Of a stretch of DNA of 4,984 bases, positions 1,575 to 4,984 are shown in pieces. The stretch comes from a virus (lineage: Duplodnaviria; Heunggongvirae; Uroviricota; Caudoviricetes). The notes beneath the pieces were generated by a model, which was given only the letters and a program-made list of their open reading frames with translations, did no database searches and was not told where the DNA came from. The stretch lies in the IMG/VR virus record IMGVR_UViG_2711768073_000012; one strand, written 5' to 3'. A program made the position numbers and the translations under genes. Numbering within the stretch: position 1 is the stretch's first letter; the number at the start of each line of letters is the position of its first letter.

Positions 1575-2537
1575 ATGAAAATTTGTATCGACGACGGCTC
1601 CACCAACATCAAGCTGGCATGGACTGAGAACGGCGAACGCCGCAACGCCATCAGCCCGAACAGCTTCAAGTCGGAATGGTCTGCGCCGTTCGGTGGCACG
1701 CAGCCCGCGAACTACATGCTTGATGGCGTGCGCTATGGTTTTGATCCGGTCAGCGATCGCTTTGTCCAGACGACCGACACGCAATACCAGTACAGCGATG
1801 TGAATATAATTGCCATTCATCACGCGCTGGTCAAATCAGGCATCACACCACAGGAAGTGGATGTGGTTGTCACCCTGCCACTGAGCGAGTATTTCGATAC
1901 AAACGCACAGCCGGACATGGCCAACATCAACCGCAAAAAAGCGAACGTCATGCGCCCGGTGGAGTACCAGAACGGCGAAGCATTCACTATCCGTAACGTA
2001 CGGGTTATGCCTGAATCCATTCCGGCTGGCTTTAAGGCACTGGCTGACATGAGTCCGTTTGAATCCCTGCTGATTGTGGATTTGGGCGGAACCACTCTGG
2101 ATGTGGCAAAGGTTCAGGGGCAACTGGCAGGTATCAGCCAGGTGTTTTGCGATCCACACGTGGGCGTTTCTCTGATGGCCGATGCCGTACTGTCGGTGAT
2201 GGCCACTAACGGTATGCGCACCAGTCACCACATCGCCAATACCATTATCGAACATCGCCATGATGAAGCCTGGTTGCGCCAGCACATCCACAATGACGCG
2301 CATTACGCCAGCCTGATGGCGGTTATTCGTGAAAAGGAAGAAACACTGAAACAACGAGTGATCCGCGCGCTGGCGGGGTTTTCGGGTTACGGGCGGGTGA
2401 TGGTTGTCGGTGGCGGGGCGGAGATTGTGGCACCCGCTATCCGCGAAGCCTGCGGAGTTAATGCGACTTTCATCGCAAAAATGATGAAGCCTGGCTGCGC
2501 CAGCACATCCACAATGACGCGCATTACGCCAGCCTGA
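1575..2537 (+). CDS. ParM/StbA-like actin-fold partition ATPase; the native C-terminus is replaced by 19 frameshifted codons because of a tandem duplication
   Basis: N-terminus MKICIDDGSTNIKLAW closely resembles the plasmid R1 ParM/StbA N-terminus (IDDGSTNIKL phosphate-1 motif). Also present: phosphate-2 motif LIVDLGGTTLDV and adenosine motif VMVVGGGAEIV. SD aggaa sits 7 nt upstream of the ATG. The last 19 residues (KMMKPGCASTSTMTRITPA) are copy 2 of the duplication read out of frame. Confidence 0.85.
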   Translation: MKICIDDGSTNIKLAWTENGERRNAISPNSFKSEWSAPFGGTQPANYMLDGVRYGFDPVSDRFVQTTDTQYQYSDVNIIAIHHALVKSGITPQEVDVVVTLPLSEYFDTNAQPDMANINRKKANVMRPVEYQNGEAFTIRNVRVMPESIPAGFKALADMSPFESLLIVDLGGTTLDVAKVQGQLAGISQVFCDPHVGVSLMADAVLSVMATNGMRTSHHIANTIIEHRHDEAWLRQHIHNDAHYASLMAVIREKEETLKQRVIRALAGFSGYGRVMVVGGGAEIVAPAIREACGVNATFIAKMMKPGCASTSTMTRITPA

Positions 2538-2697
2538 TGGCGGTTATTCGTGAAAAGGAAGAAACACTGAAACAACGCGTGATCCGCGCGCTGGCGGGTT
2601 TTTCGGGTTACGGGCGGGTGATGGTTGTCGGTGGAGGGGCGGAGATTGTGGCACCCGCTATCCGCGAAGCCTGCGGAGTTAATGCGACTTTCATCGC
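2260..2697. repeat. Imperfect direct tandem duplication: two 217-bp copies (2260-2476 and 2481-2697) separated by AAAA; period 221 bp, not a multiple of 3
   Basis: Aligned by eye. The copies differ at 4 positions (2274 t/2495 c; 2357 a/2578 c; 2378 g/2599 t; 2414 c/2635 a). All four are third-codon-position synonymous changes in the parM reading frame. CATCGC occurs at the left boundary (2253-2258) and at the end of each copy (2471-2476 and 2692-2697). Confidence 0.9.
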
Positions 2698-2755
2698 GGA
2701 CGGGGTGCCACAGTTTGCTCTGGTTAATGGGCTGTACGCAATGGACAAGGAGTAA
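2537..2755 (+). CDS. Displaced native C-terminal reading frame of the parM-like gene (72-aa ORF); likely a remnant of the duplication rather than an independent gene
   Basis: Translation MAVIREKEETLKQRVIRALAGFSGYGRVMVVGGGAEIVAPAIREACGVNATFIA is identical to residues about 248-301 of the upstream ORF. It then continues DGVPQFALVNGLYAMDKE, which resembles the ParM C-terminal end (..DLVNGMY..). Removing one repeat unit restores a single ~319-aa ParM-like ORF running 1575 to 2755. Confidence 0.45.
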   Translation: MAVIREKEETLKQRVIRALAGFSGYGRVMVVGGGAEIVAPAIREACGVNATFIADGVPQFALVNGLYAMDKE

Positions 2756-2759
2756 ACCA

Positions 2760-3071
2760 ATGACGACTCCAACCAGACGGATAAGTTTCTATCTGAAGCC
2801 CACCGCCGTCAAGAACGAAGGAGAAGCATGCGCCTGGCTGGACAGCCTTACACCAGAAGCCCGCAAAAGCGGCCAACGCGTGGCTTTTCTGGCCGGGCTG
2901 GCACTTCTGAAAATGAATCCGGCAGAGGCTTATCGACTGGCTGCATGGGCTGGTGATGAAGCGTTATCAGTGACACAAACCAGGACAGAACGCCCCGCAT
3001 CACAGCCAGTATCAACCGCACAGATAACCAGTCAGATGGCCGGAAATATCCGGGCGTTATTTCCTGAATAA
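2760..3071 (+). CDS. ParR/StbB-like partition adaptor (ribbon-helix-helix-type small DNA-binding protein), 103 aa
   Basis: ATG at 2760 is preceded by SD aaggag (2747-2752, 7-nt spacer) and starts 5 nt after the parM-frame stop. Translation MTTPTRRISFYLKP...LDSLTPEARKSGQRVAFLAGLALLK...IRALFPE resembles R1 StbB/ParR (RRTIAFKLNP...LDSIPQGERS...AALTAGLALY...LRSLFP). The 148-aa ORF in the track (from 2625) begins inside repeat copy 2 in a third frame, so 2760 is the preferred start. Confidence 0.7.
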   Translation: MTTPTRRISFYLKPTAVKNEGEACAWLDSLTPEARKSGQRVAFLAGLALLKMNPAEAYRLAAWAGDEALSVTQTRTERPASQPVSTAQITSQMAGNIRALFPE

Positions 3072-3079
3072 CACAACAT

Positions 3080-3097
3080 CAGGGCGAGTTCGCCCTG
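3080..3097. promoter_or_regulatory. Palindrome CAGGGCGA-gt-TCGCCCTG directly downstream of the parR-like gene; hairpin or protein-binding site
   Basis: Seen directly. The same 8-bp arms recur at 3738-3763. There is no T-tract after it, so it is not a classical intrinsic terminator. Confidence 0.4.
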
Positions 3098-3134
3098 CTC
3101 TCCACCTCAGAACATAAACAAGGAGAACGACTTA

Positions 3135-3725
3135 ATGAGCGAAATCAACTATCAGGCATTACGTGAACGTTATTCACCTGTGCCAGTACCGAAATGCCCT
3201 ATTTGCGGCGAGGAAATGTCAATTCAGCGAATATCTGGAGCACAGGTTGTTTATGCCTGCTCCGGTTATGGTGATGATGGAGATTTCAAAATTGGCCAAA
3301 CTCTTGCCGACGAACATTATGAAAAATCACGCGTAACAGTGTTGGATGTCGGGGATCCTGAAGTATTGGCGCTACTTGATTGGCTGGAAACCAAAGACAA
3401 CCGAATCGCTGAACTGGAAAAAATCGCCACTGACTATGCACTTAAATTCCAGAAAGCACAGGACGCATTAAAGTATGCCGCTTTGCTGCATAGCAGGACG
3501 GCGCAACAAACAAATAATTTTGCAGTATCGCTTCCGGACATAAGCGAATATTTCATTAATGACGTATTTCAGCCCTTGCGATACGAGCGGGATGTTGAAA
3601 GAGCCATCATAAAGGCTGGCGGAAAAGCATTGTGGCAGGAGAAACACGAGGACAGAACGCATCAGTCCTGCGATGTAAATCGTGGATGGTTTAGCCCACT
3701 GACGACAGATAAAAATAACACCTGA
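3135..3725 (+). CDS. Ead/Ea22-like family protein (prophage early-region protein of unknown function) with an N-terminal CPIC motif and a central coiled-coil-like segment
   Basis: ATG at 3135 with SD aaggag 9 nt upstream. N-terminus MSEINYQALRE and the segment PEVLALLDWLETKDNRIAELE resemble, from memory, the conserved N-terminus and ..VLALLDELEAAEKRIAELE.. segment of Ead/Ea22-like prophage proteins. Cysteines at residues 21, 24 and 42. Codon composition is visibly more AT-rich than the flanking genes. Confidence 0.5.
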   Translation: MSEINYQALRERYSPVPVPKCPICGEEMSIQRISGAQVVYACSGYGDDGDFKIGQTLADEHYEKSRVTVLDVGDPEVLALLDWLETKDNRIAELEKIATDYALKFQKAQDALKYAALLHSRTAQQTNNFAVSLPDISEYFINDVFQPLRYERDVERAIIKAGGKALWQEKHEDRTHQSCDVNRGWFSPLTTDKNNT

Positions 3726-3737
3726 TCCCCCTCAAAC

Positions 3738-3763
3738 CAGGGCGATAATCGCGCATCGCCCTG
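3738..3763. promoter_or_regulatory. Second copy of the CAGGGCGA...TCGCCCTG inverted repeat (10-nt spacer), directly downstream of the Ea22-like gene
   Basis: Seen directly: cagggcgataatcgcgcatcgccctg. Together with 3080-3097 it brackets the Ea22-like ORF. Confidence 0.4.
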
Positions 3764-3764
3764 C

Positions 3765-3792
3765 TGCACAATAGTGCACAAGTTTGCACAAT
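3765..3792. repeat. Three phased direct repeats TGCACAA at 3765, 3775 and 3786 (10-11 bp spacing, about one helical turn); candidate protein-binding array
   Basis: Seen directly: tgcacaatagtgcacaagtttgcacaat, followed by a T7 tract. Confidence 0.4.
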
Positions 3793-3834
3793 TTTTTTGA
3801 ACGACTTTTTACCCTTCCGGCCCGCATGGCGGCT

Positions 3835-3853
3835 GGATCCGTCAAGGATCCGT
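3835..3853. repeat. Direct repeat GGATCCGT x2 with 11-bp period
   Basis: Seen directly: ggatccgtcaaggatccgt. Confidence 0.4.
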
Positions 3854-3861
3854 GCGTGCAC

Positions 3862-3886
3862 AAAAAAACGCGCTTTTTCTGCGCGC
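3862..3886 (-). terminator. Candidate rho-independent terminator for leftward (- strand) transcription
   Basis: The - strand reads CGCGC-agaaaaa-GCGCG followed by TTTTTTT: a 5-6 bp all-GC stem, 7-nt loop and U7 tract. It lies about 330 nt downstream of the portal stop, so its target transcript is uncertain. Confidence 0.4.
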
Positions 3887-3910
3887 AGGTGACGGGGGAA
3901 CAGCCCGCGT

Positions 3911-3937
3911 TTCAGGGGGTAAATAGCATCCCCTGAA
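3911..3937. promoter_or_regulatory. Inverted repeat TTCAGGGG-(11 nt)-CCCCTGAA
   Basis: Seen directly. One of several palindromes in the presumed cos-proximal region; another is tcacgc-tga-gcgtga at 3974-3988. Confidence 0.3.
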
Positions 3938-4163
3938 CGATGTCGCAGCGACACAACAGAATGGCTGTATTTCTCACGCTGAGCGTGAAAAAGACGTGAG
4001 GGCTTTTGATTTGATGGGTGGCAGATAAGGCCGTCAAAATCGCACTGAGGCGGCGAGAACATGCAGTCAACGCGGTGGGATTGCGTAAGAGTCTGACCGC
4101 CGATGATGACAATAAGCAGAAAAGCGTCGTGAAATTATCTGATTGATACAGGAGCTGGAGAGT

Positions 4164-4188
4164 CGGGGCATAAATTTTTTATGCCCCG
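4164..4188 (-). terminator. Near-perfect palindrome CGGGGCAT-aaatttttt-ATGCCCCG 27 nt downstream of the portal stop; candidate transcription terminator or binding site
   Basis: Seen directly: 8-bp GC-rich arms with an A/T-only centre. There is no external U-tract on either strand, so the terminator assignment is tentative. Confidence 0.35.
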
Positions 4189-4214
4189 GCGAAGCAGCAG
4201 ACAAGCGAAGCGCG

Positions 4215-4984
4215 TCAGGATGTGGGCTGGGTATCTAGCAGTGCGTAAGGGTTAAAGCGGATCACCTCTTCGCCAAGCCAGTCATTGATGTGCTTCATGG
4301 CCTCCATGACGGGCATCAGCTCGTTAATTGCGTAAACCCGCGCGGCCTTCTCCACATCACCAAACGCACTTTTTTCGCCCGGCATCGCCCCCATCAGTTG
4401 CGGCGGAACGCGGTGCGCAGCCAGCACATCATCACGGGATGCCGCCTTAACATTCATGAACTCATCCTTTGCGGTGATCTGCTGGAACGGCAAAATTTGC
4501 ACCCCCTCTTTGCCCCCGTTGGGCGCATGAATGAGCACATTTTTAAACGCACCACCACCACGTGCACCCTGTAACGTTTCTTTCAGGGAGTCCATGCTTT
4601 CGCGGTTTACCTGCGCTGCTCCGATGTAGATGATGCACCCGGCGTGGGATCCATTGTCGTAGTACAGTTTTCTGAACATGTCCGCCGAATGAGACAGGCT
4701 GGCCGAGAGTAATGCGCCGAGATATTCCGGCATGCCGTAGATTTCCTGGTTAATATCCGGATTCATCAGGTGGCACACTTTGCCAGGGCGAAACTGAAAC
4801 GCGTCCTTGCCGTCCTGTACATACCACCATGATTCAAGATCGCTTCCGCGTCGCATGTATTTCGCCAGTGCGTGCCGTAATTTAAGCGGTTCGCCGAGCA
4901 TATTGCTTCGAAGCTCAAGGAATGCGTTACCGAACACAAACCAGTCCAGCGCCAGCGCCGAGAAATCCTGCCGGGAAAGCAGCG
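4215..4984 (-). CDS. Q: Phage portal protein (P2 gene Q type), C-terminal ~255 codons; N-terminus lies beyond the window end
   Basis: The - strand frame is open from the window edge (..LLSRQDFSALALDWFVFGNAFLE..) to TGA at 4215-4217. It contains the HRVPPQLMGAMPG motif, which resembles the conserved (F/H)RVPPxLxG signature of phage portal proteins. Leftward orientation next to the cos-type region and opposite gene A matches P2 synteny. Confidence 0.75.
   Translation of the reverse strand, partial: LLSRQDFSALALDWFVFGNAFLELRSNMLGEPLKLRHALAKYMRRGSDLESWWYVQDGKDAFQFRPGKVCHLMNPDINQEIYGMPEYLGALLSASLSHSADMFRKLYYDNGSHAGCIIYIGAAQVNRESMDSLKETLQGARGGGAFKNVLIHAPNGGKEGVQILPFQQITAKDEFMNVKAASRDDVLAAHRVPPQLMGAMPGEKSAFGDVEKAARVYAINELMPVMEAMKHINDWLGEEVIRFNPYALLDTQPTS

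Follow-up and report, generated by a model that had tools for sequence, protein, structure and literature searches.

A probable cos site marked by phased TGCACAA boxes in a non-coding block of a P88-like prophage of the P2 family

Introduction

A repeat-dense block of DNA lies between a group of cargo genes and the portal gene in a stretch of 4,984 nucleotides recorded as a Caudoviricetes virus in IMG/VR (IMGVR_UViG_2711768073_000012; this whole stretch is referred to as the window below), raising the question of whether this block is where terminase would cut the DNA for packaging and, if so, at which bases and by which signals the site would be recognized. According to published work, the terminase of P2 and P4 cuts a circular monomer at cos to generate 19-nt 5′ ends (PMC2231350, PMC3931495), P2-family phages package monomeric circles, unlike lambda (PMC2231350), and the conserved cos of P2 and P4 comprises ~55 bp (PMC9594776, PMC3931495; Ziermann & Calendar 1990 as cited there). 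It has also been described that P4-type satellites share only the cos/packaging signal with helpers such as P2 (PMC9122126, PMC9594776). An initial annotation of the window, made from its letters, had pointed to the block as a place for cos and had offered a centromere as an alternative. The present analysis was directed to this issue by comparing the block with related phages, prophages and satellites.

Results

The window and its cargo

Judging from its sequence, the window is part of a P88-like (Xuanwuvirus, Peduoviridae) prophage of the P2 family. Over the block, the identity is 93–95% with phage P88 and with further records of Xuanwuvirus (Peduoviridae) and 100% with Escherichia coli E2865, and similar sequence was found in 1182 of the 5426 complete E. 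coli genomes. A P88-like prophage was also present in a contig labelled Vagococcus sp. WN89Y; its portal is 100% identical to that of phage P88, and this is probably a case of contamination. The arrangement of the features is given in Table 1. The block has the cargo hotspot of the gpA side to its left and the portal gene to its right, and cos is likewise placed in the annotation of P2 and 186; the literature also puts the cos of the P2 family between the gpA-side hotspot and the portal gene (PMC9122126). The cargo (1575–3725) is situated between gpA and the cos/portal part, with its right boundary, at 3764, abutting the first cos box. The reading frame of the portal gene runs past the start given in the list of open reading frames, at 4937, to the window edge, and its stop is at 4215.

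Table 1. Features of the window and of the block under study (positions in the window; a dot indicates no strand).
Feature	Position	Strand	Remarks
gpA-type replication gene, 3′ part	to 1498		
ParM/StbA gene	from 1575		StbA_N and ParM C-terminal domain, 3.8e-82 and 9.5e-62
StbB/ParR-like gene	2760–3071		Plasmid_stab_B, 3.1e-23
Ead/Ea22-like cargo gene	3135–3725		
Non-coding block under study	3726–4214		
Hairpin with 9-bp stem (CAGGGCGAT / ATCGCCCTG)	3738–3763	+	just 3′ of the Ead/Ea22-like stop
Distal array of three TGCACAA boxes, then T7 run	3765–3798	+	starts at 3765, 3775 and 3785
Imperfect GC-rich dyad, CCGGCCCGC atg GGCGGCTGG	3817–3836	.	centre ~61 bases before the cohesive-end start
GGATCCGT direct repeat	3835–3842, 3846–3853	.	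11 bp apart; two BamHI/GATC (Dam) sites
Proximal fourth TGCACAA box and A run	3857–3868	+	31 bases before the cohesive-end start
Short GC hairpin, CGCGC ttttttct GCGCG	3868–3886	-	next to the predicted cut; resembles a terminator on the minus strand
Predicted cohesive-end segment (cosN homolog), GGTGACGGGGGAACAGCCC	3888–3906	+	positional homology in alignments
Non-coding spacer, cos to portal gene	3907–4163	.	conserved only within the E. coli lineage
Hairpin with 11-bp stem	4164–4188	-	27 nt downstream of the portal stop
Portal gene, 3′ part (gpQ homolog)	4215–4984	-	Phage_portal, 1.6e-16; right-hand anchor of the block

In the cargo, the ParM gene was found to contain a 221-bp tandem duplication at 2260–2697 (two copies, 98% identical), which shifts the frame and results in the ORFs 1575–2537 and 2537–2755. 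This duplication is missing from E. coli E2865, in which parM is intact (960 bp) and the cos block is 100% identical, and also from two other relatives. Related hairpins (CAGGGCGA...TCGCCCTG) are present at 3080–3097 and 3738–3763, after the stops of the StbB-like and Ead/Ea22-like genes, respectively. The latter hairpin folds at −21.5 to −22.5 kcal/mol (z −3.5) and, by sequence comparison, is part of the variable cargo and not of cos, because homology with most relatives begins only at 3764/3765. It is probably the 3′-end or terminator hairpin of the cargo transcript.

The block was confirmed to be without coding capacity, its ORFs showing no constraint, which bears out its initial description as non-coding. 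In the identical sequence of E. coli E2865, no gene is annotated by PGAP (NCBI) in the block. The longest plus-strand ORF annotated (4018–4146, in two phage records) has variable sites distributed 21/17/15 over the codon positions, and its frame is interrupted by frameshifts or a stop in 6 of the 64 distinct relatives, and the coding test for the small ORFs of the block indicated no codon-position bias, some relatives having them broken. An Rfam scan of the whole window gave zero matches, and a scan for sigma-70-like promoters found none in 3000–4984.

Probable assignment of cos to 3764–3906

Four independent lines, which are the limits of homology, a satellite, an alignment with known cos sites and the box geometry, place cos at 3764–3906. 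As the best explanation of these observations, we consider this segment to be the cos site of the P88-like, P2-family prophage, with a probability of roughly 0.8. Its homology, its position, its conserved geometry and its sharing with a satellite are matters of direct observation, as described below.

With respect to the limits of homology, the backbone shared with most relatives begins at 3764/3765, exactly at the first box, and the DNA to the left is exchangeable cargo. When prophage loci were picked from IMG/VR by an exact 18-mer from 3888–3905, the resulting 28 loci aligned to the window only over ~3760–3925, most of them over 3764–3906. The same was observed for phage phiT5282H (Novemvirus), which aligns to the window only over 3765–3909.

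As for the satellite, E. coli E9 (NZ_CP104500.1) contains a P4-like element with genes for an Icd-like protein, a primase, an integrase and ogr/delta, and its similarity to the window is confined to 3764–3924 (~160 bp), the only DNA that it has in common with these phages. The 501-bp segment flanking cos in this element is present in 53 complete E. coli genomes, and ~400 Xuanwuvirus prophages match only the ~160-bp cos part of it. In the E9 element (1–9100 of L007), one gene product is annotated as "P2 family major capsid protein", and the gene beside it encodes a protein of 236 aa for which Pfam gave no match.

For the alignment with known sites, the annotated ends of P2, 186 and P4 were joined and then aligned with the window. 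As a result, the 19-nt cohesive end of P2, 186 and P4 (GGCGAGGCGGGGAAAGCAC) fell opposite the window's segment 3888–3906, and positions 3857–3910 aligned column for column with the P2, 186 and P4 core, which runs from a TGCAY box with an A run through a hairpin or GC-rich flank and the cohesive end to a CGCG flank. The window is linked to the P2 type by an intermediate type of cos (group B), which has TGCAC boxes with GGCGAGGCGGGGGAGCAAG. The module alignment between the window and group B gave z values of 8.8–12.5, with 0 of 300 shuffles reaching the score, and that between group B and P2, P4 or 186 gave z values of 6.5–9.0 (0 of 300 shuffles each), the direct comparison of the window with the P4 module giving a z value of 3.8. 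Thus, the initial proposal that the block contains the cos of a P2-like phage is borne out by homology, the satellite and the conserved geometry, and the alignment to the cos regions of P2 and 186, which the same annotation had suggested as a check, locates the cohesive-end homolog at 3888–3906. The annotation had, however, named as a candidate a motif of loose resemblance at 4048–4067, which is ~160 bases too far to the right.

Phased TGCACAA boxes

The fourth line of evidence is provided by the repeats. The motif TGCACAA is present at 3765–3771, 3775–3781 and 3785–3791, in agreement with the earlier observation of three copies at helical-turn spacing (10 bp apart), and a fourth copy, which had been missed, is present at 3857–3863. 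All four copies are on the plus strand, and the 4984 bases contain no further one. The phased triple was reproduced in 0 of 200 dinucleotide shuffles with two mismatches allowed; the bare count of four copies is not significant alone, having been reached in 13 of 200 shuffles. Relative to the predicted cohesive-end start, the boxes start 123, 113, 103 and 31 bases before it. The proximal box corresponds to TGCATTAAAA inside the published 55-bp cos of P2 and P4, and its TGCACAAAAA is nearly invariant in both cos groups. Among the 64 distinct close relatives, the boxes are nearly invariant.

To examine this geometry more widely, 78 P2-like prophage loci were fetched via their portal protein, and the strict four-box architecture was detected in 30 of them and in 0 shuffled loci. 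The offsets of −123, −113, −103 and −31 (for the intermediate type, 121, 111, 101 and 29) were found again in over 15 genera, which include, among others, Citrobacter, Edwardsiella, Trabulsiella, Kosakonia, Enterobacter, Pantoea, Erwinia, Brenneria, Xenorhabdus, Photorhabdus and Morganella. In P2, 186 and P4, TGCAT boxes occupy the positions equivalent to those of the TGCACAA boxes of the window, and the more distant 186-like prophages have the same plan with TGCAT, the box type following the phylogeny of the whole structural module as represented by portal identity. On these sequence comparisons, the phased repeats appear to be a family-wide feature, P2, 186 and P4 included. A full-text literature search, with the original P2/P4 cos paper outside its reach, found no description of the distal boxes.

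By analogy with the R sites of lambda cosB, the four boxes are most likely terminase recognition sites. The initial reading of the repeats as a terminase or IHF-type array is retained with regard to their membership in cos and not with regard to IHF, because no match to the IHF consensus WATCAANNNNTTR with up to one mismatch was found in 3726–4130, the sole nearby match being at 4136, outside the module.

It is unlikely, although not to be neglected, that the boxes, with or without the dyad near −60, are conserved beside cos without being terminase sites. The cos itself would then be the proximal ~55 bp (3852–3912), and the boxes might bind a host or phage regulator or might insulate cos from transcription of the cargo hotspot. 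Published work does give the conserved cos of P2 and P4 as 55 bp (PMC9594776, PMC2231350, PMC3931495), and a core of ~55 bp implies that the three distal boxes may be accessory or dispensable or may serve another role; the fourth box, however, is identical in sequence to the three distal ones and is inside this core. The transcript of old-tin in P2 starts (33424/33426, minus strand) just left of the P2 boxes (calculated to be at 33452–33478), so that the box DNA is a promoter region in P2, and in the window boxes 2 and 3, together with the T7 that follows, make up a weak terminator-like hairpin on the plus strand, which could be in line with regulation or insulation. Against a regulatory role of the boxes, the block contains no promoter-like site. 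The spacing between the boxes and the cut is also base-exact across genera, unrelated flanking genes and satellites, and such a fixed spacing is expected of one nucleoprotein machine and not of a promoter or terminator of variable cargo.

Dyad, direct repeat and hairpin within the module

Between and beside the boxes are elements that are less conserved in sequence. A dyad is centred at −57 to −65 in 28 of the 42 distinct cos modules, with differing arm sequences, and a GC dyad is at the equivalent place in 186 and P4, whereas P2 has none there. The perfect stems of the −60 dyad average 4.7 bp, compared with 3.9 bp in shuffles, which is a weak signal. The hairpin at 3868–3886, which had been recognized earlier as terminator-like on the minus strand and is indeed present, is located where P2 and P4 have the hairpin CCGCCCCG..CGGGCGG, and its GCGCGC arm flanks the predicted top-strand nick. 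It folds no better than shuffles (z −0.8). Because of the short stems and of folding that is no better than in shuffles, neither the −60 dyad nor the cut-site hairpin is proposed to have a structural role. The several palindromes that had been reported for the block were identified as hairpins or dyads at 3738–3763, 3817–3836, 3868–3886, 3911–3937 and 4164–4188.

The direct repeat of GGATCCGT with an 11-bp period, also reported earlier, was located at 3835 and 3846. The pair is conserved among close relatives (E. coli lineage), with the first copy being specific to the E. coli Xuanwuvirus lineage and the second overlapping a GGATC that the "group A" cos sites keep at ~42 bases before the cohesive end. 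The corresponding segment is unrelated or variable sequence in the satellite, group B, P2, 186 and P4; the repeat is lineage-specific, and its inclusion as a general part of the site does not hold. Packaging is tied to the methylation state at P1 pac. The GATC (Dam) sites at 3836–3839 and 3847–3850 are inside the cos module, with GGATC kept in several genera, and, by analogy with P1 pac, they might link packaging to the methylation state.

Predicted cohesive end and sequence termini

The nick positions are predicted within about ±3 nt, as gaps in the alignment allow an overhang of 16–19 nt. Segment 3888–3906 matches the 19-mer of P2 at 13 of 19 positions, which is at the chance level by itself, and direct 19-mer comparisons with the ends of P2, 186 and group B also gave chance-level scores. 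The assignment of the cut site, therefore, rests on its context, and the homology of distant relatives stops at 3906. No phage record was found to start at cos, and no phage, IMG/VR or metagenome sequence was found to start or stop at 3888–3906. In the IMG/VR contigs carrying the 18-mer, all of which are prophage-like, the site is internal in every case, and none of the 72 metagenome contigs carrying a 26-mer ends at 3886–3906, the nearest one ending 22 nt beyond (L273).

A linear record of a related phage, LR595891 (P88_4B11), is opened at the position corresponding to window 3809, between the distal boxes and the dyad. This record is a clean circular permutation with no terminal overlap. Its start was considered as a candidate for a physical end, but it is off the conserved cut-site position and was treated as arbitrary; the literature search found no paper describing LR595891 and no reason given for its start.

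Spacer and portal-side hairpin

The spacer that follows the cohesive-end segment contains hairpins at 3911–3937 (z −3.35) and 3967–3995, in addition to ORF 4018–4146 and the motif at 4048–4067. The hairpin at 4164–4188 has a predicted energy of −24 kcal/mol (z −3.7) and a variability of 0.3–1.2% among close relatives, and it stands where P2 has the terminator tQ and 186 has tW. Unlike these, it is followed by ACUCUCC, without a U run, and was not called by the terminator scan. From its position, it would close the portal operon as a terminator. In E. coli S19-651 (L286 2501–2563), the 63 bp of 4152–4214 are 100% identical beside a different portal gene. In that strain, the distance from the upstream ORF to the portal gene is only 66 bp, so that there is no cos module at that place. 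A copy in Salmonella enterica has ~620 bp inserted between the portal stop and the cos region.

Other candidate functions and positions

The motif at 4048–4067, GGCGGCGAGAACATGCAGTC, which had been suggested as cos-like, is very improbable as the cut site. It is ~165 bp from the portal stop, compared with a gap of 168 bp between the cohesive end and the Q stop in P2 (186 being similar), and it matches the P2 end at 12 of 19 positions. This score is, however, below that of the typical best chance match, at least 13 matches being reached in 74 of 100 shuffled windows. Furthermore, TGCAY boxes are missing at the expected offsets, the motif carries substitutions among close relatives, and its region shows no conservation in phiT5282H, in the satellite or in any of the distant relatives that have the same cos core. 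The motif is, thus, a chance-level match in DNA that is unconserved outside the E. coli lineage.

Equally hard to sustain is the alternative that the boxes serve as a parC-like centromere away from its usual place, to which the ParR/StbB-like protein encoded in the neighboring cargo would bind: the cargo does include a genuine type II partition pair (ParM and StbB domains) and the repeats are phased, but the boxes belong to the backbone starting at 3764 and not to the cargo, and they are found at the same distance from cos in elements lacking ParM/ParR, such as P2 (old/tin), 186 (orf97) and P4 (psu), phiT5282H (FtsH-like gene), the 23CRST028 prophage (RelE/HTH cargo) and the E9 satellite. This disposes of the centromere proposed in the initial annotation, as the boxes occur in elements without parMR and the backbone starts at the first box. 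Type II systems usually keep parC upstream of parM. A better candidate for parC is a 38-nt direct repeat at 1432–1469 and 1505–1542, upstream of the parM start, the two copies of which are 79% identical with a spacing of 73 bp and contain the palindromes ACGGGACTCACAAATCCCGT and GCGGGATTTAAAAATCCTGT. It is plausible that the repeats at 1432–1542 are the parC/promoter region of the ParM/StbB pair.

Discussion

The cos module described here is of the ordinary P2-family kind and does not represent a new kind of system. It resembles the cos sites of P2, 186 and P4 in its location, with the hotspot on the gpA side to its left and the portal gene's 3′ end to its right, in a predicted G-rich cohesive-end segment flanked by GCGCGC-like sequence, in a proximal TGCAY box with an A run ~30 bp before the cut and in three phased distal TGCAY boxes ~100–123 bp before the cut. 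The GC dyad near −60 is shared with 186 and P4, and, as for the cos of P2 and P4, the module is common to phage and satellite. On the other hand, its boxes are TGCACAA and not the TGCAT of P2, 186 and P4, and its end (GGTGACGGGGGAACAGCCC), which is predicted from sequence, differs from that of P2 (13/19) and is possibly 2–3 nt shorter in the alignment. The hairpin beside the cut is different in sequence from that of P2 and P4, and the spacer between the cohesive end and the portal stop is ~310 bp, compared with ~170 bp in P2 and 186. The site of the ParM/StbB/Ead-like cargo is like the accessory and defence hotspots adjacent to cos in P2 and P4 (Rousset et al. 2022, PMC9122126), although, unlike the defence systems of those hotspots, the cargo of the window consists of a partition pair and an Ead/Ea22-like gene, with no recognized defence system.

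The cos of lambda is organized as cosQ-cosN-cosB, with R sites for gpNu1 and the IHF site I1. The resemblance of the present module to it is a functional analogy only, in which a nicking site is flanked on one side by distant short boxes for terminase recognition, with a segment in between that could bend the DNA or give it structure. Lambda cos and the window are not related in sequence, gpM and gpP being unrelated to gpNu1, and, unlike lambda cosB, the module has no IHF consensus and its boxes are all in one orientation.

On the analogy with P2, P4 and lambda, we propose a mechanism in which the binding of terminase to the boxes and the exact cut positions are inferred. Terminase, consisting of the homologs of gpM and gpP, which would be encoded outside the window, may recognize the four TGCACAA boxes. 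With their like orientation and starts 10, 10 and 72 bp apart, the boxes would be presented on roughly one helical face of the DNA. The binding would set the nuclease ~31 bp beyond the last box, on the G-rich segment, where staggered nicks around 3888 and 3906 would produce 5′ cohesive ends of ~19 nt, with the predicted left end reading, from ~3888, 5′-GGTGACGGGGG... In the mature packaged chromosome, the boxes would be at its right end, because the conserved signals are all on one side of the cut.

The cos of the Xuanwuvirus prophages is present in about one-fifth of complete E. coli genomes, and none of the records examined carries an annotation of it; this analysis locates it with an accuracy of a few bases and sets the right-hand boundary of the cargo hotspot. 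The predicted virion ends should be of help for genome orientation, for PhageTerm-type analyses and for the design of cosmids and transducing particles for this helper group. In addition, the family-wide boxes are a candidate for terminase recognition and for the specificity of packaging between helpers and satellites. We tentatively suggest, as a possibility that we hold to be somewhat less probable than its opposite, that the packaging signal of the P2 family is not the ~55-bp core but a segment of ~145 bp, consisting of phased TGCAY boxes in a 3+1 arrangement and a GC dyad near −60, whose distances from the cut are kept to the base in the Peduoviridae and in their satellites, and that the TGCAC/GGTGAC type of the window and the TGCAC/GGCGAGGCGGGGGAG and TGCAT/P2 types are groups of packaging specificity. 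The base-exact 3+1 box architecture, together with its TGCAC and TGCAT variants matched between helper and satellite, is the only part of the site that might repay experiments. If the suggestion is true, the specificity groups would decide which satellites, of the P4 type or the E9 type, are mobilized by each helper.
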